Positions 2,011 to 64,000 of a stretch of 64,000 nt of DNA are shown piece by piece. Below the pieces are notes generated by a model, which was not told the DNA's origin, ran no database searches, and saw nothing but the letters and a program-made list of their open reading frames with translations. Numbering within the stretch: position 1 is the stretch's first letter; the number at the start of each line of letters is the position of its first letter. The position numbers and the translations under genes are program-made. Origin of the DNA: Eledone cirrhosa (lineage: Eukaryota); NCBI GenBank assembly GCA_964016885.1, contig OZ024742.1:128340001-128404000 (forward strand). The letters are read 5' to 3'.

Positions 2011-2999
2011 CTAAGCAGGTAAAAAAATACAACAAAAAAACAAAAATATCATAACATGTATAAGACATTTTGAATTTCCATATATGAAATTTCTGCTGAA
2101 ATGTGGAAAAGAGATAAAATGATGACCATGCATGTTGTGATATTTCCTTTTCTTTGTGCATCTTAGAGCATTAGATTAAATGCCTTGGTATGCTCTCAGT
2201 TCAAATCTCAAAGGTCAACTTTGCTTTTCTTCCTTTTGAGGTCGATAAATAAAGTATCAGTTCAGTATCGTGGTAGGTTTTTCTTCCATTCCTCTTTCTC
2301 ACTTTCTTTCACTCTTCCTCCTTTTCTCTGGAAGAAATTCAGATCTGAAGAGAGATGGGTTCCAGGTTTAAAATGTCCAACACATACCTTGATTCCAGGA
2401 GTTAAGAGTCCTTTACTTTCCTTCCATGCATATTGAAATATTTTCTTTTCTTTTATTAATAGATCAATCAGAATTGACACAGATCAATCAAATACTGTTC
2501 ATTTTCCTTTTATTGCCCTATTGCCTTCATTTTCATTCTATTCATTAATTTTATTATTTTTATCTCCTTATTATGTACAGCAATTTCCAGAGAGTGTTGA
2601 GAATTTTTGATATGTAATAGGGACAATATAAAAGAACATCAAAATGTTAGTTTATTTTATTTCATATTTCATCTCATTTCGTTTTTTTTTCTTTTTTCTT
2701 TTTTTTTCGTAGGTTTTCTGAGCCGCTGTCAAGATTTATGTTTGAATTTGCATTTCTTACTGGACATGAATTTCCCATTAAGTAGCAAACATTGAAAATA
2801 GATGGAAACTGTGGAATCAGTAGACCAAAGAAGACATGGGACAAAGTTATAAAGAATGACCTGAAAAGACTGAATGGACCGCATGAAGATGACACAGGAC
2901 TGAGTGGACATGCAATATGCCATAATCGAAAAGACCTGTGCTCCAGTACAAGCACTGTGACACCATGAAATGTAAATGTCTTGAGTTACTGGAGGCTAC

Positions 3000-3860
3000 A
3001 GTGTTTAGTGATTGAACAGAAACAATATATATGCTGCTCATTATCTCATCCCAGTTTTTATCTATTTGGTGGTCTGGACCAAACCAGACCCTGAGCAGTT
3101 TAACCGGTCTGCTCCTTCAGCACCTGACAATGCTGTTGGACAGCATAGACTTGCCACTTCTGGTGCCGAGCTGCAAGCCCATCGACTTTTACTGGTTAAT
3201 TTGTGTTCCTGATTTTGCTTTGTATTCCTGGAGAGCAGTGCCAATCAACTCAGTATGATTGCTGCTCGACATCACTACAGTCATGTCATTGACATTTGCT
3301 GACACGGATCTTCCACATCTTAGTTTGTGTGGGATGCCTCTCAACATCAATTTATGAAGTAGTGGCTTGAGAATCAATACATACAAGAGAGATGAGAGGG
3401 GACAACCTTGGCAAACTGAGTGCATGATGTTGAATGGTTCAGATAGGTAGCCATTCACTCTAATCACTGAACAAATGTTGCTATGCATTGTAGCAATCTA
3501 ACCTCTGAATACAGATCCAAAGCCCGTTGCCTTGAGGATAGTTACCAGGTACTGATGGGTGACCCTATTGAAAGCTTTTGACTGATCTAAGTTGATCAGG
3601 GCATCACCTGTGCCAGGTTTCTTAGCTACTCTCTCTATGAAGTATTGCATAAGATGGAAGTTGTTGTGAATGGATCTATCTGGAATGGCACATGTTTGTG
3701 CCTCTTCTACCAGACCACCAACAACAAGCGCCAACCTCATCGCTAACATCTTGGGCCAAAATTTTAAACTATGTTTTTAGCAGAGTTATGGGCCTAAAAT
3801 TATCTATGTAGTCCCCTCTGTTCAGGCCCTTTCTCAGTAGCACCACCACACCTCATATCA
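3000..3860 (-). mobile_element. L1/Tx1-type LINE reverse transcriptase fragment
   Basis: DQSKAFNRV, QGCPLSSLLY, RSIHNN motifs; frameshifted. Confidence 0.85.
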
Positions 3861-19460: not shown

Positions 19461-19724
19461 TACCTGGAGCATGGCATGTTCCATTGCAATCCCTGTACTT
19501 GCTGTTATTCGTCTTTTCGCCACTAACACAGTATGCACAGTTGTCAATATATGAGGAACCATTACATACATTAGCACAGTCTAAGCCATAATCGCCTGTT
19601 TTATTTGTTGTACCTCCAACACAGTGAAGACATAAGTTGTAGAAAGCATTACCATTGCAGGTCCCTGGAACAGAAATTGAGAGATAATTAATGAGAAAAT
19701 AACTTAATTTTGTTAATTATTATT

Positions 19725-20311
19725 GTGTATGTGTATTTGTGTGTGTGTGGGACTGTGTGTGTGTATTTGTGTGTGTGGGGGTGTGTGTTTGTGTGGGTGT
19801 GTGTTTGTATGTGCGTGTTTATATGTGTGTGTGTGTGTGTTTGCGTGTGTGTGTTTCTATGTGTGTGTTTGCGTGTGTGCTTGTGTGTGTGTGTCTGCGT
19901 TTGTGTGTGTGTGTTTGTTTGTGTGTGTGTGGGACTGTGTGTGTGTGTGTTTCTGTGTGTGGGGGGACTGTGTGTGTGTGTATGGGTGTGTGTTTGTATG
20001 TGCGTGTTTATATATGTGTGTGTGTGTGTGTGTTTGCGTGTGTGTGTTTCTATGTGTGTGTTTGCGTGTGTGCTTGTGTGTGTGTGTCTGCGTTTGTGTG
20101 TGTGTTTGTTTGTGTGTGTGTGTGTGTGTGTGTTTGTGTGTGTGTGGGACTGTGTGTATGTGTGTTTGTGTGTGTGGGGGGACTGTGTGTGGGTGTATGT
20201 TTGTATGTGCGTGTTTATATGTGTGTGTGTGTGTGTTTTCGTGTGTGTGTTTCTATGTGTGTGTTTGTGTGTGTGCTTGTGTGTGTGTGTCTGCGTTTGT
20301 GTGTGTGTGTT

Positions 20312-20347
<36 letters not shown>

Positions 20348-21090
20348 TGTGTGTGGGACTGTGTGCGTGTGTTTGTGTGTGTGGGGGGACTGTGTGTGTG
20401 TGTGTGGGTGTGTGTTTGTATGTGCGTGTTTATATGTGTGTGTGTGTGTGTGTGTTTGCGTGTGTGTGTTTCTATGTGTGTGTTTGCGTGTGTGCTTGTG
20501 TGTCTGCATTTGTGTGTGTGTTTGTTTGTGTGTGTGTGTTTGTGTGTGTGTGGGACTGTGTGTGTGTGTTTGTGTGTGTGGGGGGACTGTGTGTGTGTGT
20601 GTGTGGGTGTGTGTTTGTATGTGCGTGTTTATATATGTGTGTGTGTGTTTGCGTGTGTGTGTTTCTATGTGTGTGTTTGCGTGTGTGCTTGTGTGTGTGT
20701 GTCTGCGTTTGTGTGTGTGTGTGTGTTTGTTTGTGTGTGTGTGTGTTTGTGTGTGTGTGGGACTGTGTGTATGTGTGTTTGTGTGTGTAGGGGGACTGTG
20801 TGTGTGGGTGTGTGTTTGCATGTGCGTGTTTATATGTGTGTGTGTTTCTATGTGTGTGTTTGTGTGTGTGCTTGTGTGTGTGTGTGTCTGCGTTTGTGTG
20901 TGTGTGTTTGTTTGTGTGTGTGTGTGTGGGGGGGGGGACTGTGTGCGTGTGTTTGTGTGTGTGGGGGGACTGTGTGTGTGTGGGGGTGTGTGTTTGTATG
21001 TGCGTGTTTATATGTGTGTGTGTGTGTGTGTGTGTTTGCGTGTGTGTGTTTCTATGTGTGTGTTTGCGTGTGTGCTTGTGTGTCTGCGTT

Positions 21091-21131
<41 letters not shown>

Positions 21132-21132
21132 T

Positions 21133-21178
<46 letters not shown>

Positions 21179-21445
21179 TGTGTGTGTGGGACTGTGTGTG
21201 TGTGTTTGTATGTGTGGGGGGACTGTGTGTGTGTGGGGGTCTGTGTTTGTATGTGCGTGTTTATATGTGTGTGTCTGCGTTTGTGTGTGTGTGTTTGTTT
21301 GTGTGTGTATGTGTGTGTTTGTTTGTGTGTGTGTGTTCGTTTGTGTGTGTGTGTGTGTTTGTGTGTGTGTGGGACTGTGTGTGTGTGTTTGTGTGTGTGG
21401 GGTGACTGTGTGTGTGTGTGGGTGGGTGTGTATGTGTGTGTGTGT
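19725..21445. repeat. Complex (GT)-based satellite with a higher-order unit of roughly 170-200 bp
   Basis: Markers gggact, ggggggact, tttgtatgtgcgtgtttatat, tttctat, ctgcgttt recur in fixed order about 9 times. Confidence 0.9.
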
Positions 21446-21510
21446 AAAAGGAAGGAAGGGGTGGTGTAAAAACTATAGCAAAACAGCAGTTGGCGTTACA
21501 TTTGCTACGC

Positions 21511-22520
21511 TGTGTGTGAGTGTATGTGTATGTGTGTGTGAGTGTATATGAATGTATATGTGAGTGTATGTGTATGTATGAGTGTGTGTCTGTGTGAATG
21601 TATGTGTCTGTTTGTGTAAATGTATGTATGAGTGTGTGTGTGTGAATGTATGTGTGGGCTTGTGTGAATGTATGTGTGTGTTTGTGTAAATGTATGTGTG
21701 TGCGTGTGTTTGTATGAATGTATGTGTGTTTTTGTGTAAATGTATGTGTGTGTGTTTGTGTGAATGTATGTGTGTTTTTGTGTAAATGTATGTGTGTGTG
21801 TTTGTGTGAATGTATGTGTGTTTTTGCATGAATGTATGTGTGTTTGTGTAAATGTATGTGTGTGCATGTGTTTGTATGAATATATGTGTGTGTTTGTGTA
21901 AATGTATGTATGTGTGTGTGTGTCTGTGTGAATGTATGTGTGTGTTTGTGTGAATGTATGTGTGTGTTTGTGTAAATGTATGTATGTGTGAGTGGTTGTG
22001 TGAATGTATGTGTGTGTGTGTGTGTGTGTGTGTGCGTATGTGTGTGTGTCAATGTATGTGCATGTTTGTGTGAGTGTATGTGTGTTTGTGTAAATGTATG
22101 TGTGTGTGTATGTGTGAATGTATGTGCATGTTTGTGTGAATGTATGTGTGTGTTTGTGTGAGTGTATGTGTGTGTTTGTGTGAGTGTATGTGTGTGTTTG
22201 TGTGAGTGTATGTGTGTGTTTGTGTGAATGTATATGTGTATTTGTGTGAATGTATGTGTGTATTTGTGTGAATGTATGTGTGTGTGTGTGTGAGTGTATG
22301 TGTCTGTTTGTGTAAATGTATGTATGAGTGTGTGTGTGTGAATGTATGTGTGGGCTTGTGTGGACAAGCCCACACATACATGTGTGTATTTGTGTGCATG
22401 TGTGTATTTGTGTGAATGTATGTGTGTATTTGTGTGTATTTTTGTAAGTGTGTCTCTGTTTGCGTGTTTATATTTATGTACTCATACATATAAATGTATG
22501 CATATGCACATACACACATA
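21511..22520. repeat. Minisatellite, ~20-bp unit tgtgtgaatgtatgtgtgtgtt
   Basis: Direct inspection. Confidence 0.9.
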
Positions 22521-39665: not shown

Positions 39666-39728
39666 ATTACATTTTATTATACATATTTCGGATATACAAC
39701 AGTACCTCCTCATCAGACAAAATATAAT
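39666..39728 (-). ncRNA. Minimal type I hammerhead ribozyme (Penelope pLTR type)
   Basis: 12-bp stem I attatattttgt/ataaaatgtaat, CTGATGA, stem II gga..tcc, GAAA, quasi-palindromic stem III ATATGTAT, AUA site. Confidence 0.8.
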
Positions 39729-41397: not shown

Positions 41398-41634
41398 TTT
41401 AACTTTAACACGTAGAACTTTATTATATAAAATTATAACCGTTATCATTTACCTAAAGTATACTGTATCACTAATACCTAATATAAGATATATCCATATA
41501 TAACTCCCAGTATCTTTCTATATATAATTTTCAGTTAACTTCTAAATTTTTTGATTGTTTTTACTTTGAGCTAGGAATAATTAATACATGTACACACCGT
41601 TATATATGGGTACATATTTAGTTTTAACATGCCT

Positions 41635-43015
41635 CAATCTATATCCACTTCGAGCAAGAGCTTCATTGTAATAAGTGGAATGGTCGTTGAAAATACGCTC
41701 GTTGGTGGAAAGACGGGAAAGCCTCAACGAAACGTTTCGTACCAGGTTCTTGGTTATGCTGGCAGGATGGTTGGAATGCTTACTTATGTAATTAAGCGTA
41801 TCATTCGGCTTTCTATACGGGTAATACAACCCATTCAATAAATTGAGGGTAACGTCGAGGTAATTAACGACCGAGAGATTGGCCTCAACCTGTATAGAGA
41901 GGTTGAAGCCTTTAAAGAAGGCTGTGAGTTCTTTTCTGAACCTGTCGCAAGCACGAGGTCCGCATTTAGTCATGGTCAAAAGACCATCGTCACGGTACAA
42001 ACCACCGCCAGCGTTGGGGAATTCGTCCTTGATAGAGAAAAGAAGGAAAAGGTCAATAAGATCAGTAACCTCCGCAGAATCACTGGCGCCCATACTCACG
42101 TCGAATGGGGTACTATTGGATTTTTTAATCCAAATAGAGTCGTCGAAATTAATCACCGACTTTCGGGCATTGAGGATGACATCAACTTCGAAATCCTTAA
42201 CCACTGTGAGTGTTTTAGCGAAATTGATAGCTCTAAGGAGAAGTGGTAAAGTGATGGAGGAGTAGTAATTGTTGATGTCGAATTGGATAACACGGCAATG
42301 TTCCTTGTTACATATGCCGTTGAACCAATCAATCACCGCGAAAGAATTGTTCCACAGTGCAAGAGGGGCCAAACTTCTAATTTCAGGTATAATTCTATCA
42401 AGAATCGTTTTACTAAGTCTACCTAAAACGGAGTTCGTAGGGTTAATAAGCCGAATAGAGGGGTCGTTCGGAAAATTGGATTTGTGATCCTTCAGGGTAA
42501 AGTGGGGAGAAATAGGGTCCAGAGGTTCGGTCCGGTCCAGGATGTTGAGATCAGATGTGATTTAAAACCCAGCATCGTTGATTTCATTGATGATGCACCG
42601 ATTAGTTTTACGGTAATCCTTAGTTACAGCATTATGTAGTAGTTGATGATAAGTACTGCGCTCCACTTGATATAGGTTGCCAGTTTTGTCGGAATGGACG
42701 TGCACGGCATTAGAACCCTTAATAGAACGAATTCTATTCTTCAGGTCTTGCTGGAAGGAATTGCTGCTATTCCGAAATTTGATACTCCGAATGAGTTCCA
42801 AGACATCATTTTCGAAGGGTAGCAATGCTGGGTTCCACGGGGGTTTATTATAGGTTTTAAATCCAAATTTATCCTGTTTGTTGTCTGCTTTTCGCGGATT
42901 ATCGAAATAAAAGGCACGCCAACGCATCCTTTTAATGAACGCGTCTGTTTTCTGTATCAGGAGTTTTAGGTATGTTTTCCTGCTTGGTACGGGTATGTTC
43001 TTTGTAGAAATATTC
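41635..43015 (-). mobile_element. Penelope-like reverse transcriptase (probably Naiad clade) with one in-frame TAA
   Basis: YSTKNIP, MRWRA, SDKT, TLKDHK.NF..RLINP, FDI..YY, MGA.DSAE, LYRDDGL, YLDVTL, SNHP. The clade name is from recalled motifs. Confidence 0.9.
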
Positions 43016-43063
43016 AGATGTTGTTTCTACATATATATACATATATATATACATATATATATA

Positions 43064-50976: not shown

Positions 50977-51181
50977 TTATATATATATATATGTACATAA
51001 CTACATAAACGGAGAAAGCTATTAGCAATACTCCGATCAATTTCCAACTCACTCAACAAACATTAGGAAATACCGGAGTATATTCCCAATTAAACGTTTG
51101 GAGTGCTAACTCTCATATATATATATATATATGATAATAATGGAGCTGCGGCGCTGCAAATGGGTTACATATGAAAAAGTT

Positions 51182-51284
51182 TGTCCTCATCAGTGGCCTT
51201 CCAACCGTCGTAGGCATTTCGTCGCATTAAAGGCCATATACCTCAGGTTGGTGCGAGCAACGGCTAAAAAAAGTCGTTGGGACA
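51182..51284 (-). ncRNA. Hammerhead-like motif with reversed strand order, copy B
   Basis: Near-identical inverted copy of copy A. Confidence 0.65.
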
Positions 51285-51835
51285 CGTAAATAAGAGGGAC
51301 GCTAGGGTAAACAAACAAAATGGTTTAAGCAACAGAAAGTGATGAAGAAGAAAGAAACAAGTCCCAGATTTCTATGAATATAAATTCGGTGGAATCGTGA
51401 ACGAGAGAATAAAGACCATCAAACCTGGTTGAAATGTGAGCAAGGAAGGAATTTCGCACAGGTCTAACCTCTTCCTCACCTTTCACTCACTCACTCTCTG
51501 TCACTACCTCTCCTCCTCCCCCCTTCTTCCCGTTTGACCTTTTCTCGCGGCACTTGGCCAAGCCGGTATGAATTTTTTTTCTCTCTCTCTCGTCTGCGAC
51601 TTCACAGAACTTATGTTTACCGAATTCGCAGACCAGACCCCTTCTTCCTCCCGTTAGACCTGTGCGAAATTCCTTCCTTGCTCACATTTCAACCAGGTTT
51701 GATGGTCTTTATTCTCTCGTTCACGATTCCACCGAATTTATATTCATAGAAATCTGGGACTTGTTTCTTTCTTCTTCATCACTTTCTGTTGCTTAAACCA
51801 TTTTGTTTGTTTACCCTAGCGTCCCCCTTGTTTCG

Positions 51836-51938
51836 TGTCCCAACGACTTTTTTTAGCCGTTGCTCGCACCAACCTGAGGTATATGGCCTTTAATGCGACG
51901 AAATGCCTCCGACGGTTGGAAGGCCACTGATGAGGACA
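51836..51938 (+). ncRNA. Hammerhead-like motif with reversed strand order, copy A
   Basis: gaggta-TA-tggcctt (51876-90), GAAA-tgcctc (51900-09), aaggcca-CTGATGA-ggaca (51920-38). Confidence 0.65.
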
Positions 51939-52303
51939 AACTTTTTCATATATATATATATATATATATACATATACACAGCAGTCGAACCTCTTGACAT
52001 ATTAATCAACTCAACAAATAAGGAGCAGTAATATTATTATTACATTCAAAGTAAAGGATGTCATGAATAATACAAAAACAAACATATGTCTTGTCTCAAA
52101 AAACAGCTCAAGATAGAATTCAGAGAATAAAATCAAGCCTTAAGTTTTGATGTATTGTAATACAGACTTATGTGTGTATGGATATATTTCATTCACATTT
52201 TCTATAATGATTAAGGCGCGCAACGTATACATAAACACAGTGATGGACAAAATCAAAAACAAAAAGATAAAAAAATTACATAAGAAGGGTAAATAGAAGT
52301 ATA

Positions 52304-52544: not shown

Positions 52545-52599
52545 AGTATGGGGAGAAGAATACTGCATGGTTGCACATGGATTACATATTATAAAATTA

Positions 52600-52700
52600 G
52601 TCCCTCATCAGTGATTTCATCGATCATTGGTATTTCATCGCATTAAAAATCAGATACCTCAGGTTGGTGCGAACAATAACTAAAATAAGCTATTGGGACA
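52600..52700 (-). ncRNA. Hammerhead-like motif with reversed strand order, copy C
   Basis: Minus strand: ggta-TC-tgatttt, GAAA-tacc, gaaatca-CTGATGA-gggac; compensatory changes relative to copy A. Confidence 0.65.
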
Positions 52701-53047
52701 AGTGAAACGCATTAAAGCGAGTGAGACAAGTAAACAACAAGAAGGAAAAGCTAACCGAAGATGGGAAGAAAAACAAGCAACATGGTTATTCGGTCAGCAT
52801 AAGCTGGGTGAATACATGAGCGCTTAGCAAACAGACCTTTCGCTGTGAATGAGATGTAAGAAAGAAGGAATCCGACTCCTAGCGAACGGGATGAAGTGAG
52901 AAGGGGAGAAACAGAGAGTGAGTGAGTGGAAGTGCGAGGAAGAGGTCAGTCGAGAGAAAGTGTTAACTGACAGAGGGGACGAAAGAAGGTAAGAGAAACA
53001 GAGAGAACGAGGGAGCAGTAAGAGAGAAAGAGAGAAACAGAAAATCG

Positions 53048-53982
<935 letters not shown>

Positions 53983-54008
53983 TATATATATACATATATA
54001 TATATACA

Positions 54009-54130
<122 letters not shown>

Positions 54131-54301
54131 TATACACACACACACATATAAAAGGCACATTGTTGTTGTTGTGTGTGTGTGTGTGTGCTTGTTCCATGTT
54201 TATACATTTGCACAATTTCAAACCGATTCGACTCAAAGTCTGTGAGAATGTTGTAAATGGTCTTACTTAGGTCGACGACTATTTATTTCATTTAAACTCA
54301 C

Positions 54302-54338
54302 CCACAATTACGGAAATAATCGATAAAACTAAATACAT
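54302..54338 (-). CDS. Host gene exon 1 (start codon + signal peptide) of a secreted/membrane Cys-rich protein
   Basis: Minus strand reads ATG...MYLVLSIISVIV then G|GTGAGT donor (phase 1). Joined to exon 2 it gives the hydrophobic leader MYLVLSIISVIVVSYITT. Confidence 0.7.
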
Positions 54339-54677
54339 GACGCTTTACTCCTCTAATACAATCAGAAATTCCTCTCTCTACTCCCCTTAAAATTCGATAA
54401 AACTATATACATGCTGCAACTTTCTCTTATATACGATTAAACTTACAAACTTTAAGAGAGTGAGAAAGAGAGAACGTTTGCTTTTGAGTGTGGAACGGTC
54501 AAACATTTATTTACTTCAATGACAAAGAGAACTTATTACATTTCATACGAAACAACAATTATTCAAAAGCAACAGATAAATTTATTCAACGACAAAAAAA
54601 ATAGCGATAATCTTTTTTAAAGCATCTATCAACGAACGTGGAAGAAAGAAGTATCAGTTCATGTACTATACACAATA

Positions 54678-54853
54678 ATATCCTCTATGAGGTCACTAAA
54701 CCTGCTAGAAACAGCAGCTAACTCTCCCCCATATCACACCCCTCCCTACTGTCTTAAATTTAGAAAAACACATATCCTCTATGAGGTCACTAAACCTGCT
54801 AGAAACAGCAGCTAACTCTCCTCCATATCACACCCCTCCCTACTGTCTTAAAT
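54678..54853. repeat. ~94-bp tandem duplication upstream of exon 1
   Basis: atatcctctatgaggtcactaaacctgctagaaacagcagc... occurs twice. Confidence 0.9.
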
Positions 54854-55205
54854 AAAAAAAAACACACATTAGACAACCATGCAGAACAACTCCATCGCAG
54901 CTCTGTTGTTCGGTTGGCATCGTCTACACGCGTGTTGCGCAAGTTCCGTGAAACAATAAATTTCAACACTTCTTTGCACAGAGATAATATCCATAGGCGA
55001 AACTACAATTGTCATTGCTGGCGCAGCTCCTGCTTCGGCAGTCCAGGTCTGCAATTCATTCACACAGTGCCTGGCAGACAAAAAAGTGGTGCCATAAAAT
55101 GGGTGGTGCAACCTAACTTTGGTAACTTACTGACCCCGAGCAACGCCGGGCTTTAATGCTAGTATTATAGAAATTGTTTTAGCGAGAAGCCAACAGTATT
55201 CTATA

Positions 55206-55370
<165 letters not shown>

Positions 55371-55392
55371 CATACATATATATATATATATA

Positions 55393-55722
55393 TGGCTTAG
55401 TGGTTAGAGTATTGGGCTTGCAATTGAAATGTTGTGAGTTCAATTCTCAGACCGGGTGATGTGAGCAAGACACTTTATTTCACATTGCTCCAGTTTACTC
55501 AGCTGTAGAAATGAGATGATAGAGACTGGGGCCTCTATCATTCCACTGTAAAGTTGGCGTGTAGGGGCCACGGCAAAAAAGCACCCAGCACTCACTGTAA
55601 ATGAGGTTGGTGTTAGGAAGGGCATCCAGCTGTAGAAATCAAGCCAGAACCAGTTCCCGTCCCACCCTTGCAAGCAGGGAAAAAACGGACGTAAAATGTT
55701 GATGATGATGATGATGATGATG
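55393..55722 (+). mobile_element. SINE family 1
   Basis: tggcttagtggttagag head; RTE tail. Confidence 0.9.
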
Positions 55723-56276
55723 ATATATATATATACATACATATATATGCACTCACACAAGTATACACATATATACATACACATATACATACAATTGTAT
55801 ATACTCACATATACATACAATTGTATATACATACATATACATACCTACAAATATATATATATATATGTGTGTGTATTCTTCCATTTTATATGTATATGTG
55901 TGTGAATGTATGTGTGTATATATATATTTGTGTATGTATATATATATATATATATATACATACACAAATATATATACACACACATACATACACATACATT
56001 CACACACATATACATATAAAATGGAAGAATACACACACACGCATACATATGTAAACAAAAACATACACCCATATATATGTATATATATACGCATGCCTAA
56101 ACATGTAGAAACTTACACACGTACATATGACTAACCATATACATTTACACAAAATATGCAAGAATACACAGGCAATTATAACTAAATACATACAAAAGTG
56201 CATACATACATAAACATACATTCATACATATCTATGAATATAGAAAGATAGAAATAGGGTTCCCATAAATAAAATA

Positions 56277-56792
56277 ATTGTTTCTGCTTTTGGCACAAGG
56301 CCAGCAAATTCCCCGTGCATTACTGGTTCTTTATTTTATCTACCCCGTAAGGATGAAAGGCAAAGTAAACCTCGGCGGGATTTGAACTCTGTAAGTAATA
56401 AATAATTGTTTCTACTTTTGGCACAAGGCCAGCAAAAACCCCGTGCATTACTGGTACTTTATTTTATCTACCCCGTAAGGATGAAAGGCAAAGTTAACCT
56501 CGGCAGGATTTGAACTCAGAATGGTAAGGGCCGTAACTCTGTGCGTCAAAGCATGGCGTCCGACCCTCTACCGATACTGCCAATCCACCGATCCCATAAA
56601 TAAAATAATTGTTTCTACTTTAGGCACAAGGCCAGCAAATTACCCAGTGCATTACTGGTACTTTATTTTATCGACCCCGTAAGGATGAAAGGCAAAGTCA
56701 ACCTCGGCGGGATTTGAACTCAGATCATAAAGGGACGTAACTATGCTGGAAAGCATGGCGTCCGACCCTCTACCGATACTGCCAATCCACCA
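56277..56792 (-). mobile_element. Three head-to-tail SINE family 2 copies
   Basis: Units at about 56277-56390, 56405-56590 and 56608-56792. Confidence 0.92.
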
Positions 56793-57390
56793 CCCATAAA
56801 TAAAATAATGAAATGTAAGGGTGTATGTAGAAAGAGTATAATTAATAGGTAGAAAGAAAAAGGGATAAGGGTAGTGAGAGGGTATGATAAAGGATATGTG
56901 AATAAAGTGAATATGTGAGTGTTATTTGTTGTAGATAAAGTTAAAGTTGAAGTTTAAAAAAGGGGAGAAGTGTTCAGGGTCTCTCAAAGGTTAAGAAGGG
57001 TGCAAACAAGCCTCAATTTTATAGCGATGTCAGTAGAATGAACACTTCATTCTTGCTATAAAATTGGGCTTGTTTGCATAATTGCAAACGAATCGAATGT
57101 TATTATTAATATTCGAAAAACTCAGATTACATTTATTGTATTCAGTCATGTAGAGCAACAATTTTCTTTTTTATTTGAATTTGGCAAAGACGGCCATTTA
57201 TCGCTTGTATACAGGAAACTGACTGGCCAGTCTGCTGATATGCAAATCTGGCTGATCAGTGGATCTGCTAATATGCAGATCTCACTGATCGGTGAGTTTG
57301 TTAATATGCAAATCAGGCCGATCGGTCAGTGTGTATTTTTGAAAATAGCATATATTTTCACTAGCTCTGAGAGTTTGGCAGGTGAATAGT

Positions 57391-57440
57391 GAGCTGTACT
57401 GATGAAGGGTGATACCCAGAAAAATTAGTGTCTGCAGTTC
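57391..57440 (+). ncRNA. Type I hammerhead ribozyme (stem III slightly decayed)
   Basis: Stem I gagctgta/tgcagttc, CTGATGA, gggt/accc, GAAA, GTC at 57430-32. Confidence 0.75.
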
Positions 57441-59279
57441 TGTTTACATGCCAACACAAGAGCAAGAATGAAGGGTTCATTCTACTGACATGGCTATAAA
57501 ATTGAGGCTTGTTTGCATAATTGCAAACGAATCGAATGTTATTATTAATATTCGAAAAACTCAGATTATATTTATTATATGTATATATATATATATATAA
57601 ACGGAAAAAATGAAACGAAATTTCATTTCTCACTCTTAGTACGGCTGTTACTTAAATATAATGTGTACAGTAGTATGTATATATATACATACATGCACAC
57701 ATATATATATGTACGTATGGATTCACCGAACATTTATTATAATGCTCGATGTGTTTGTAAACAAACATCCCGAATTAAGCCGTACAGTGTTTAGCAACCA
57801 TCGTTGCCCATTTTGTTCAACACTGACAAAGGAACGCTGTACTAGTTTCAAGCTTATTAGCTATCGTCACGTACTTATACTTACTTATATTTAAGTAACA
57901 GCCGTACTAAGAGTGAGAAATGAAATTTCGTTTCATTTTTTCCGTTTATCGTTTTCGGTGCGCCCGGCCGATTAACTCACTCGATATGCAAATTAGGCTG
58001 CTCAGCCGTTAATATGCATAAGGAAAGTATATACTTTCAGACGTTCAATCATCTGGCAGGAAGGTATACGGTGCAGACGATAGCTAATAAGCTACAGGAG
58101 CAATTTTGATGTTCTCTGGGTATTTTCTTATTGAGGATATAAGATTTTATAGAGGGACCGCAGGAGTAGCTGATTATGACAGTTTCTATTGAAGATCTTA
58201 TACGTGCTTTTGTATGTATGTGTTTTTGTCTGTACGTATATATATATATATATATGTGTGTACGAACTTCTGTATGTTTTCTACTTTTTATTTATTTTTT
58301 CTAGTGTTACTTTATAATTGATAACCCCTCCCTCTTACTTTCTCTTTGACTTAATTTTTATTATATATTATTTCATTTTCATATTTTATATTTTTATATC
58401 TGTATCGACCTTCAGTCTGACTCTGCTTTGACTGATACACTCCCTTCCCTGTATATATCACATACATGTATGTGGTTGCGCGTGTGTGTATGTTTATACG
58501 CGTGCGTCCTTTCATCCTTGTATGTGTATATATTTCAATCCTTAGTCCCTAAATCTGTATAATTCAGTCCCTGAGTCTCTATTATCTTACAATTTCTTTT
58601 TTCAACATATATTATATACGTATTTGTGGTCACACATACACTTATATGCTTGCCCTCATGTATGTACTTACACACACATTTTTTCACTATACACATGCAT
58701 TTGTACATACACACATATGTACAGTTGTAGGTGCATATACACACATTTATACACATACCCTTACTATATTTCCTTATTTTATTTTTTTATATATCTCTTG
58801 CATTACTTTTATTTATATATTTTTTTTGCCCGTTAATCTATTGCCTTTCTTGAGGAGATTTTGCAAAGATTTCTTATCTGAAAACGTGTGTTGAAACAGA
58901 TATTGTTATAGTTTGGGAGGGTCATGCTGCCAATAAAAACACGCGAACCTGCTGGTTTTCACTTCAGTTTATTGTAAATTTCCGGTTGGCTGGTTCAATA
59001 ACTGGATTGTTATTTATATATTGTCAAAGCCCTTTCGTCACACATTCTGTGACCTCCGCAGTGACTGATTTCTTACATTGTATCTCTCTTTTGTTCTGTT
59101 CACACAGAATATGTGACGAAAGAGCTTTGATAACCATCTGATTATTGAACCAACCAACGAGAAATCTATAATAGTGAAAACCAACGGGTGTGTGTGTGTT
59201 TTTATTGGCAGCATGACTCTCCCAAAGTATAACAATATATTTATATATATGTATATATATCGAAAAACATATATATATA

Positions 59280-59552
59280 TACTTCAATGAAAATAGGCCA
59301 GAATCCAAATATTCCTTTAATGGAGTTCGCAACCGATTGTCACCAAACTTGACACATGGGCTACGTATGTCCTACAAATGAATTTGAATACTCAGAATTG
59401 GCATATATTGAGTAGGGGACCTCAGGAGAAAGGAACCCCCCTTTAAAAAAAAAGCCAATGATTTTGTACAAGTATAGTTTTCGAAGCAGCACTGAAGTAT
59501 GGACATGAATGCTATACATGATTGCTATTTAATACGCCGGGTACCTCTGCTA

Positions 59553-59555
<3 letters not shown>
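59280..59555 (+). mobile_element. Possible non-autonomous Helitron
   Basis: Ends acgccgggtacctctgCTAGT; a similar end cccgagcaacgccggg..gCTAGT lies at 55135-55163. Confidence 0.45.
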
Positions 59556-59626
<71 letters not shown>

Positions 59627-59631
<5 letters not shown>

Positions 59632-59749
59632 AACCAGTAAGACCCCGACGGCTAAGCTCAAACCGTTTCGAAGGGTAATTCTGGACTCAGTCCAGAATTA
59701 ACCGTCGAAACGGCTTGAGCTCAGCCGTCGGGGTCTTACTGGTTCCTAT
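59627..59749. repeat. 123-bp near-perfect palindrome
   Basis: Axis at 59688; 4 mismatched pairs. Confidence 0.95.
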
Positions 59750-59825
59750 TACCCACTCTACTACCGTAAGTATTGAGTACTTTGGTGCGTTACGGTCCAC
59801 CTGGTTCCTTACCACATTTCCTTCG

Positions 59826-60214
<389 letters not shown>

Positions 60215-60299
60215 AACCTACTCCAGAAACTGTTGAGTGCTTTTATATCAGTTATAAAATATTTACTTGTTGTAACCCAACAATCTTAAATAAAACTTT

Positions 60300-60342
<43 letters not shown>

Positions 60343-60367
60343 TAGCTAGTATATACATATATATACT

Positions 60368-60435
60368 AAGCGGTAGATATCTTGTCTTTAAAGCGTGGAA
60401 ATATCTGAGACCCCCAGTAGACAACTGGTGAAGAA
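60368..60435 (+). ncRNA. Hammerhead-like motif with reversed strand order, copy D (5'-truncated, core CTGGTGA)
   Basis: tagata-TC-ttgtct, GAAA-tatctg, agacaa-CTGGTGA. Confidence 0.55.
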
Positions 60436-60909
60436 CCCCCTCCCCTGGTTCTTGCTTTCTTCTTATTCTCACTCCATTTTAAGCTACCTTAACTACCAAC
60501 TACACAGCCAATCCTATGCTCCATATATTTTATCATGTTTCGCTCTGACCAGTCTTCTCTCTTCTTCTACCTACCTATTTCGTTACTATCTACTCTTACC
60601 CCTCTTTCTTCCTCTCCCTTTCTCCCTCTCACTTTCACTCATCCTCTCTTTGCTAGCCTCCTCATTGTTTCCCTCGTCTGACCCTCTAGCATTTCCTTTT
60701 CTCACTTACACTCGCTGGCGTCAGACGTGTCTTTTCGCTCGCCCACACGCTCTTGAACTTAAATTCTCTTATCGCTTGGATTTTTTTACCTTAAGTTGTT
60801 CGCACATTGCTCGCACATTGCTCGCACATTGCTCGGTTTGTTGTTTTTTCTCGTTGTTTTCTCTTTTCTTCCCTTTTCCCTTCTATTTTCCTTCCCTCCC
60901 TCCTCTGTT

Positions 60910-61016
60910 TTCCCAATAACTTACCCAGTTATTGAACACTCTGGGCGGTAGATATATTGTCTTTAAAGCGTGGAAATATCCGAACCCCCCCCCCCCCATA
61001 GACAACTGATGAGGAC
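60910..61016 (+). ncRNA. Hammerhead-like motif with reversed strand order, copy E
   Basis: caataact/agttattg hairpin; gata-TA-ttgtct, GAAA-tatc, agacaa-CTGATGA-ggac. Confidence 0.62.
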
Positions 61017-61052
61017 CCCCCTCCCGTTTCTTATTCTCACTCCATTTTAAGC

Positions 61053-61113
<61 letters not shown>

Positions 61114-61210
61114 GTCTGTCTCTCTTCTTTCTATGCCGGTCTCTACATAGTTACACCTATGTAACAAGACACATACGTGAGAAGTAAGATAATGAGTTCA
61201 TACTGGTATG

Positions 61211-61261
<51 letters not shown>

Positions 61262-61458
61262 CGAGAGAGAGAGAGAGGGAGGGAGAGGGAGAGAGAGAGA
61301 GAAATATATATATACATGTTTGTATACACCAAAATCCATAGTAAAGTTATATATATAAAGTATATAAGTCTAGAGTAAATATTTATTATGTGAACAGTTC
61401 AGAATCATGGGTTTCACCATTTCAATCGATCTTGAATATATATATTTCGATTTACACC

Positions 61459-63232
<1,774 letters not shown>

Positions 63233-63246
63233 TGAAATTATATTTA

Positions 63247-63297
<51 letters not shown>

Positions 63298-63678
63298 GGC
63301 GACCTACGTAGTAAATCGTATCATCGTGAGCTCCGCAAAGGTTTGTTATTTCCGTTTGTTAAAAATTGCCATTTATGGAAAATTTTATTGTTAACTGTTT
63401 ATAAGCACACATACATTGTTTTCCGAAAAGGACACCCCAAAAAATTGGGGCCTTGTGCCCAAAATTTTAACTTTTATTATTATCAAAAAATTTCTTTGAA
63501 AAAAAAATGGCTAATTCACCTCTGCAACAAGCAGCTGAAAGCCTTCCTCATAAATTAACACCTCACACCGACACCACCATTGTAAATGTTACTACGTTTG
63601 CCAACACAAAAAAAAAATATAAGCAGTAGCAATATTATAAATTTGTCTCAGGCAGACATTCATTTCCCGCCATTACCA

Positions 63679-64000
63679 ATGACTGCAGGTGTTAAAGCCT
63701 CCACCACCACCACCACCACCGCGACAACCACCACCACCACCACCACCGCGACAACAGAAACAAAAGAAGAAAAAAATAAATTAACTCGTGATGTCGAAAT
63801 GAAATCAAGCAAAATGGACTCTTCCCCACCAAAGACGACTGACGTCACCACCACCACAACTGAAACTAAAATTAATATTAACGATAGCAACAACAACAAC
63901 AATGACATTATAAAACCGACCCTCAGTTTCGCCAGAGTAGCAAAACAATTCGAAGCTTGTACGGTAACTCAGGAGGATTTAGAAAATGCCAAACAAATGG
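63679..64000 (+). CDS. Open reading frame running off the window, possibly a LINE ORF1 N-terminus
   Basis: MTAGVKASTTTT...PTLSFARVAKQF, open to the window end; begins about 380 nt after a (TAT)n tract. Confidence 0.35.
   Translation, partial: MTAGVKASTTTTTTATTTTTTTTATTETKEEKNKLTRDVEMKSSKMDSSPPKTTDVTTTTTETKININDSNNNNNDIIKPTLSFARVAKQFEACTVTQEDLENAKQM

Follow-up and report, generated by a model that had tools for sequence, protein, structure and literature searches.

Hammerhead ribozymes of the order S-G-C, retrozymes and non-autonomous Penelope-like elements (PLEs) are each already known, and the comparisons made here refer to the available parts of the articles cited by identifier. The non-circularly permuted hammerhead named type SGC by Eckert et al. 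(2023) cleaves in cis in assays, and its G block was assumed to be uninterruptible (PMC10085705). A natural hammerhead with a stem II of only one base pair was described as active in 2011 (PMC3088659). Metazoan non-LTR retrozymes contain type I hammerheads in tandem repeats of 150–450 bp that extend up to long arrays (PMC7229834; Li et al., bioRxiv 10.64898/2026.07.22.740005), and Cervera and de la Pena (2020, PMC7229834) describe circles formed from these repeats in coral, mussel and axolotl. PLE insertions are recognised by partial tandems, 5'-truncated copies in inverted orientation and, optionally, a tail of 30–40 bp (PMC8557442), which arises because reverse transcription starts at two sites (PMC11167929). 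In vitro, a lizard PLE was able to insert without hammerhead cleavage, and reads ending at the cut site were absent (PMC11167929). Naiads, a PLE clade encoding an N-terminal GIY-YIG domain plus a reverse transcriptase (RT), were stated by Craig et al. (2021) to "lack canonical hammerhead ribozyme motifs", yet eight cases were flagged as "HHR_half_core", among them Naiad_Ovul, Naiad_Esco and Naiad_Smim; the cephalopod Naiads were described as remnants (PMC8557442).

The insertion investigated here lies in a window of 64 kb from the Eledone cirrhosa genome (the whole stretch of DNA that was analysed). Judged by truncation, pseudo-LTR, inverted copies, two end positions and TA target, it is best explained as a decayed copy of a non-autonomous PLE whose master RNA carries an S-G-C hammerhead with a stem II that opens into a four-way junction, a reading to which we give a probability of about 0.72. 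The parts of the insertion and its surroundings are as follows, the ribozyme strands X, P, Y and Z being placed further below.

60303..60365, no strand: (TA)n tract 5' of the insertion, target
60370..61054, + strand: whole insertion, a 5'-truncated partial tandem (1.18 units) of the non-coding family A, from repeat comparison and family search
60370..60486, + strand: upstream repeat (pseudo-LTR), with the 3' half of the ribozyme and the tail, without X, P, Y and Z
60487..60906, + strand: pyrimidine-rich non-coding body, 76% C+T
60630..60641, + strand: short motif CACTTYCACTCA, common to sister families whose bodies are mostly unalignable
60796..60835, + strand: copy-specific 11-bp tandem expansion of 3.6 copies, from a tandem-repeat scan
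60907..61015, + strand: downstream ribozyme footprint, complete but eroded, a predicted S-G-C hammerhead with split stem II
61016..61054, + strand: 3' tail ending in one of the two end zones of family A, into (TA)n
61053..61111, no strand: (TA)n tract on the 3' side, target

The two copies of the direct repeat (60370–60484 and 60945–61054) share 76% identity over 123 columns (E 2e-23) and fall into three ungapped blocks with identities of 91%, 85% and 100% and spacings of 575, 581 and 568 nt. A distance of 575 nt separates the predicted cleavage bases, 60381 and 60956, as the initial annotation had proposed from the letters of this stretch; the value is specific to this copy, the local 11-bp tandem at 60796–60835 being counted in it. 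The repeat recognised by that annotation is real, with homology starting at 60370 rather than 60368 and ending at 60486 and 61054, and its description of a unit between (TA)n tracts with a pyrimidine-rich body and no credible open reading frame (ORF) agrees with what was found: the longest ATG ORF of the body has 48 aa, and one stop-free frame of 175 codons has no useful ATG. In the upstream repeat, the predicted site lies after 60381 and GAAA at 60398–60401; the core is mutated, with CTGGTGA at 60425–60431, already noticed as possibly dead, and then AGA where GGA is expected. X, P, Y and Z are missing from this motif because the insertion is 5'-truncated there, starting at 60370, 12 nt before the site. 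As the upstream motif is both incomplete and mutated, the repeat at this locus is therefore best regarded as a PLE pseudo-LTR (partial tandem), and the idea of a monomer bounded by two working ribozymes had to be given up for this locus. The motif was also found to be longer than the repeat; the earlier annotation had overlooked the ribozyme's 5' half as well as the splitting of stem II. With an upstream motif unable to fold and an eroded downstream motif, this copy is probably inert, and the proposed 575-nt circle would not be expected from this locus. Folding of the 575-nt unit was unremarkable (z −1.77), and the downstream motif of this copy folded no better than shuffles (z −0.21). The 12-nt motif CACTTYCACTCA was matched twice in the 64-kb window (60630–60641 and 52923–52934), compared with 0.03 matches expected, and its similar position in the bodies of sister families would be compatible with a possible promoter or protein-binding element.

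A search of the 3.0-Gb genome with the unit gave 2146 candidates, of which 40 were scored, and the best 29 other loci were 80–87% identical. An exact motif pattern, sister families included, was matched 3424 times genome-wide and a pattern specific to family A 563 times, with 0 matches in reversed controls in both cases. At least five families carry the motif, and their bodies are mostly unalignable between families. Site spacings in family A were 518–583 nt plus one of 329 nt, for a unit length of about 550–570 nt. In families B and B2, which align with each other at 71%, spacings were 445–532 nt (mostly 525–532 nt in B); families C and G gave 619–624 and 505–532 nt, respectively. Contigs from three sequencing runs of one sample contained the repeat family and tandem-type joints, data in which ends, strand and circles are not resolvable. 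Matches to the motif pattern in metagenome contigs (32 loci) and viral contigs (one locus) were rejected as chance matches, stems I and III being present in 0/33. Three further motif copies, at 51237, 51883 and 52653, were located in the window and belong to two sister families.

51166..51954, no strand: sister family C, an inverted pair with an intact motif in each copy and arms 98–99% complementary, sites after 51883 (+) and 51237 (−)
52595..52960, − strand: sister family B copy with the motif, site at 52653, 5' extent approximate

Among the 30 best family A loci, a terminal direct repeat was found in 29, an inverted piece in 12 and two complete ribozyme footprints in 6, and the longest locus had at most 1.67 units; this sample favours long copies because it was ranked by score to a query that itself contains the repeat. 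The 5' ends of family A varied among loci. Of 51 3' ends, 16 fell at unit positions 94–101, all followed by TA, 30 at positions 129–148 (22 followed by TA) and five elsewhere; 46 of the 51 thus lie in two zones approximately 35–45 nt apart, and 38 of these 46 continue into TA. The fixed ends of family A sit 3' of the ribozyme and not at the cleavage site. The cleavage junction is crossed once in most copies and two times in several; among the fetched loci, runs of consecutive motifs reached three at most, in sister families. The family matches the PLE signature (PMC8557442), and the direct repeat is therefore assigned as a pseudo-LTR with fixed ends 3' of the ribozyme. Of the remaining proposals of the initial annotation, a multi-copy rather than single-copy segment, other copies with the terminal direct repeat (29/30 best loci, as ranked above) and PLE-type mobilisation (partial tandems, inverted pieces, two 3'-end zones and (TA)n targets across family A loci) were all supported. 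A retrozyme-like family with an atypical ribozyme was supported as regards copy number, terminal repeat and a hammerhead of reversed order, and was not supported as regards a two-ribozyme monomer at this locus.

These observations suggest a mechanism in which masters with two complete motifs are likely to be transcribed and to self-cleave after AUH. The released monomers would then be ligated into circles by analogy with retrozymes, a step to which we give even odds. Very probably, a PLE protein with RT and GIY-YIG domains would nick (TA)n and, 3' of the ribozyme, prime reverse transcription at two positions, and copying through the cleavage junction would, with the same high confidence, give rise to insertions of 1–1.7 units that are 5'-truncated and inverted.

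A substantial though less probable alternative is that the ribozyme is active and the element is mobilised without a circular intermediate, in which case uncut tandem transcripts would be the template and cleavage would only trim or limit the RNA; by this route the family would therefore be a short non-autonomous PLE and not a retrozyme. That PLEs form partial tandems whether or not they have canonical hammerheads (PMC8557442), that cleavage is dispensable in vitro for the lizard PLE (PMC11167929), and that only 6/30 loci have two complete footprints and fetched loci have at most three motifs in a row are all consistent with uncut templates. However, a circle simply explains a junction crossed once in most copies and twice in several, the unit lengths of sister families are tight (619–624 nt in C, mostly 525–532 nt in B), and metazoan retrozyme repeats do give circles in the coral, mussel and axolotl (PMC7229834).

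The predicted ribozyme has the block order cleavage site (AUH), GAAA, CUGAUGA, i.e. S-G-C, and begins approximately 50 nt 5' of the site, where the segments X, hairpin P, Y and Z follow one another. The partner of X is the strand that follows the core and that of Y the strand preceding GAAA; Z lengthens stem III. In the downstream footprint of this copy these elements are located as follows.

60907..60913, + strand: strand X, forming 7 bp in the family with the strand that follows CUGAUGA; in this copy only 60911–60913 pair, with 61013–61015
60914..60934, + strand: hairpin P, 7 bp
60936..60940, + strand: strand Y, partner 60967–60971 just before GAAA, one mismatch in this copy
60942..60945, + strand: strand Z, the stem III extension, partner 60995–60998, shortened here with the poly-C expanded
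60951..60962, + strand: block S, with stem III strand 60951–60955, predicted cleavage after 60956 (AUA) and stem I strand 60957–60962
60973..60980, + strand: block G, with GAAA 60973–60976 and a stem III strand
61000..61012, + strand: block C, with stem I strand 61000–61005 and CTGATGA 61006–61012

The fold was evaluated in an alignment of 19 representatives (A1) drawn from 130 pattern matches, comprising 12 of 13 cluster medoids, two further subfamily members and 5 of 34 singletons; the 29 singletons left out were 5'-truncated or decayed copies, single variants of represented families and two chance matches. The columns of UH, GAAA and CUGAnGA were conserved in full or to at least 90%. P, Y, Z, III and I together comprise 28 pairs, which were 92.8% paired compared to 81.1% after shuffling and 27.5–47.9% in slid registers. 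Both-sided changes were seen in 20 of the 28 pairs, and 0/500 shuffles reached this result; such shuffle counts overstate significance and are not probabilities, because the aligned sequences are related. Stem I was 97.4% paired with both-sided change in 5/6 pairs, stem III 98.9% with both-sided change in 2/5 pairs, and the outer pair of helix Y was unpaired in 8/19 rows. Helix X was paired at 85.7% in 9 rows and at 78.0% in 10 rows, the rows of alignments A2 and A3 having been picked by hand according to whether an extra base follows the core, with A3 including L056, probably in the wrong register, and L101, truncated within X. There is hardly any variation in the first three X pairs, the only ones retained in many copies of family A, this one included. 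For all six helices, cognate strands paired better than strands swapped between representatives, least clearly for X. Covariation of the six predicted helices (I, III, Z, Y, P and X) extends over families whose bodies largely fail to align. Energy folding of four representatives, which is blind to pseudoknots, recovered X in 4/4, P in 3/4 and Z plus III in 2/4. A compensatory Y change was sought in single copies with an altered Y' strand and none was found; on their sequences, these are copy-level mutations in a subfamily that itself holds a compensated pair.

For the canonical stem II, cognate strands were no better than swapped ones, and a canonical SGC stem II of 5 bp was rejected (34.7% paired, 201/500 shuffles). 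A single pair at 10.1–11.1 is possible in 14/19 representatives; it is present in 50/52 copies with the extra base after the core and in 44/78 copies without it. In family A copies without the extra base it is present in 16/45, and the position is often G-G or A-G. The simplest reading of these data is that stem II would consist of one, often non-canonical, pair opening on a four-way junction of II, X, P and Y. It is moderately likely that helix Y would tie stem I to the strand with GAAA, and that helix X would close the molecule, in place of the usual contact between loop I and loop II. An alternative core with the CAAU after strand X as G block was rejected on sequence, hairpin P taking up the CAAU bases and GAAA being invariant.

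A scan requiring only stems I and III plus the core, run on 232 loci (991,592 nt, mostly fetched via the motif), gave 94 distinct S-G-C matches and 0 in reversed or complement controls, and the distance from cleavage base to GAAA was 17 nt in 90/94. One match, at 2576 on the minus strand of locus L010, lies outside all families and has the six helices in new sequence (X, P of 8 bp, Y of 5 bp, Z of 6 bp, III of 7 bp and I of 6 bp), a pyrimidine-rich body and an end in (TA)n; its X-P-Y-Z order was reached in 0/3000 shuffles, with thresholds chosen after viewing the sequence. A tandem array with a unit of approximately 51 nt (L010 ~2950–3670) adjoins this divergent ribozyme family.

It is unlikely that the motif is a hammerhead-derived, non-catalytic structure kept as a recognition site for a PLE protein. 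Such a role would accommodate the missing canonical stem II, the frequent G-G or A-G at 10.1–11.1 in family A and the spider Naiad Sdum, which by eye keeps its helices with a degenerate core (PMC8557442), but it leaves unexplained why UH, GAAA and CUGAnGA are invariant or nearly so while bodies and helix sequences differ between families, and why the distance of 17 nt recurs in 90/94 matches; moreover, activity is described for the natural hammerhead whose stem II has a single pair (PMC3088659). That the helices form between two molecules or tandem units, as in minimal PLE hammerheads, is very improbable: the single-strand fold does need three crossing helix layers, and dimer cleavage has been described for axolotl retrozymes (PMC7229834) and in a title cited by Eckert et al. 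(PMC10085705), but the stem III loop is not palindromic, all strands lie within ~110 nt with fixed short linkers, and S-G-C ribozymes cleave in cis in the assays of Eckert et al. (PMC10085705).

When compared to described hammerheads, the motif lies outside the circularly permuted types I, II and III, having the order S-G-C and no Rfam match. Among 88 Rfam matches at E up to 5 in window positions 54000–64000 there was no hammerhead, and six related loci gave 0 matches at gathering score. It shares with type SGC the order cleavage site, GAAA, CUGAnGA, the crossed stems I and III, the full core and the short linker that joins stem I with the strand preceding GAAA (PMC10085705). It differs in that the strands of stem II pair with separate upstream strands joined by hairpin P, and the uninterrupted G block, the covarying stem II and the helix "I" joining stems I and II of type SGC are absent here (PMC10085705). 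Furthermore, the copies found here are chromosomal and number thousands in an animal genome, in contrast to the SGC ribozymes from metatranscriptome and metagenome searches, and the text of one supplementary file of that study contains none of the words "Octopus", "Metazoa" and "Eukaryota" (PMC10085705). The hammerhead with a one-pair stem II likewise has a minimal stem II stabilised by outside helices, but it is of circularly permuted type II order and no four-way junction is described in the available part of that article, unlike the S-G-C order plus junction here (PMC3088659). No tested precedent for a break or junction next to G12 was met in the available parts of the papers cited, and a search of open PMC papers and bioRxiv, and of the text of Eckert et al., returned no description of a split stem II or of an S-G-C hammerhead from any animal genome, an earlier mention being possible.

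As in metazoan non-LTR retrozymes, the element is non-coding and multi-copy with one hammerhead per unit, a GC content below 50%, dimers and trimers and a proposed dependence on PLEs (PMC7229834; bioRxiv 10.64898/2026.07.22.740005); the type I hammerhead of retrozymes is lacking. Unlike retrozymes, the units measure 445–625 bp, occur mostly as dispersed partial tandems and carry an S-G-C ribozyme, their circles being putative.

Likeness to the Naiad clade was seen in the (TA)n targets, pseudo-LTRs, inverted truncated copies and tail of 30–40 bp (PMC8557442). Unlike the coding Naiads, the element here is non-coding. Naiad ends were parsed by eye in the consensus file of Craig et al. (PMC8557442). 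The 3' ends of Naiad_Ovul and Naiad_Obim were found to contain X as TCC/GGA, P with the loop of family B, Y as ACACC/GGTGT and Z, followed by III of 5 bp, GUA, I as CTGCCC/GGGCAG, GAAA and CTGATGA (PMC8557442). In Naiad_Esco, I, III and Z are perfect, with the same TTAA linker and spacing, and Y and X are weak (PMC8557442). The spider Naiad_Smim shows S-G-C order with a stem III of 11 bp and a stem I of 8 bp, where an ordinary stem II of 3 bp is possible, and in its relative Sdum stems I and III persist beside a degenerate core (PMC8557442). Read by eye, the six-helix fold is thus matched in octopus and partly in squid, and the S-G-C order is matched in spider. An S-G-C parse of the ostracod Naiad half-cores was sought by eye in the same file and none was obtained (PMC8557442). 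The nematode Naiads before Naiad-3_Nbra and Naiad_Hpol, as viewed by eye, have CTGAnGA ... GAAA with a long stem II in type I-like order (PMC8557442). Naiad ribozymes may come in several topologies. In the available part of Craig et al., no ribozyme fold was recognised in Naiad ends (PMC8557442), and no earlier report reading the Naiad half-cores as an S-G-C ribozyme was found in open PMC papers and bioRxiv.

On this comparison, the ends of Naiad-clade PLEs are the likelier source of the ribozyme, and its present mobiliser may be another (TA)n-targeting PLE. A broader proposal, which we advance tentatively and at slightly less than an even chance, is that an active animal hammerhead, non-circularly permuted and with its GAAA/stem II block split into a four-way junction, would be the ribozyme of Naiads (the "half-cores", at least in cephalopods and spiders), captured by several non-coding families, spread to thousands of copies as circular RNAs and outliving its Naiad parent via the machinery of other PLEs.

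An intact coding partner carrying the motif was not found in this genome. Four Naiad-derived patterns gave 0, 11 (at chance level, control 3), 0 and 1 matches genome-wide, and the sole Naiad-like find was a short broken remnant (L263 ~1190–1530) that by eye resembles the RT region of published cephalopod Naiads, which agrees with the description of those Naiads as remnants (PMC8557442). Several PLE families with a C-terminal GIY-YIG occur in the genome, two of them young, with copies 94–99% identical and ends in (TA)n or (AT)n. The top 30 GIY-YIG loci, and likewise the frames of 14 further loci, appear to encode C-terminal endonucleases, and among the fetched PLE copies none had the motif attached directly to a PLE frame. 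In this partner search, Pfam returned a sub-threshold GIY-YIG match for one fragment only and nothing for the full frame.

One of the young families comprises high-copy fragments with RT plus GIY-YIG at the C-terminus (window 41581–43026(−) and L173–L201, copies 94–97% identical); CUGAnGA was absent from its long 3' tail in the copies read. The window copy at 41581–43026 was considered as a Naiad and rejected: its GIY-YIG is C-terminal and its tail lacks the motif. The other (L094 6506–8070, L168 and L108–L137), which is putatively Neptune-like by a motif, has frames of up to 1261 codons and copies 96–99% identical, bears a type I hammerhead in its tail and ends in (AT)n, with a tail fragment at window 58860–58937. 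A Neptune-like frame beside the motif in L049/L094 was rejected as partner, being separated from it by a (TA)n tract and having its own type I hammerhead, and the PLE frame in L244 was rejected as likewise separated. The element has no DNA-level similarity to the one Neptune-like element compared.

If the proposed fold and origin are right, non-circularly permuted hammerheads would extend from environmental RNA to animal chromosomes, with a topology that the published six-permutation scheme rules out by assumption, and the Naiad puzzle of missing canonical motifs and present half-cores would gain a testable answer. Surveys using type I–III descriptors would then overlook whole ribozyme or retrozyme families (3424 exact matches, and none by Rfam in the tested loci). 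The present copy is a decayed witness only, and the many natural variants with built-in compensatory changes are suited to work on cleavage and structure.

Several other features were observed in the window. Three canonical-order motifs resembling type I hammerheads lie on the minus strand at 39716, 48693 and 49428, the first two with tails running into (TA)n. A perfect inverted repeat of 129 nt at 59935–60214 has a CTGAGGA motif in each arm, like the type I hammerhead at 39716(−), and is probably an inverted pair of another PLE-type tail. At 59627–59749, an inverted repeat of 61 nt lies between (TA)n tracts, with related sequence in the TA tracts of L202, and a degenerate (TG)n tract of 2.6 kb spans 19724–22352.
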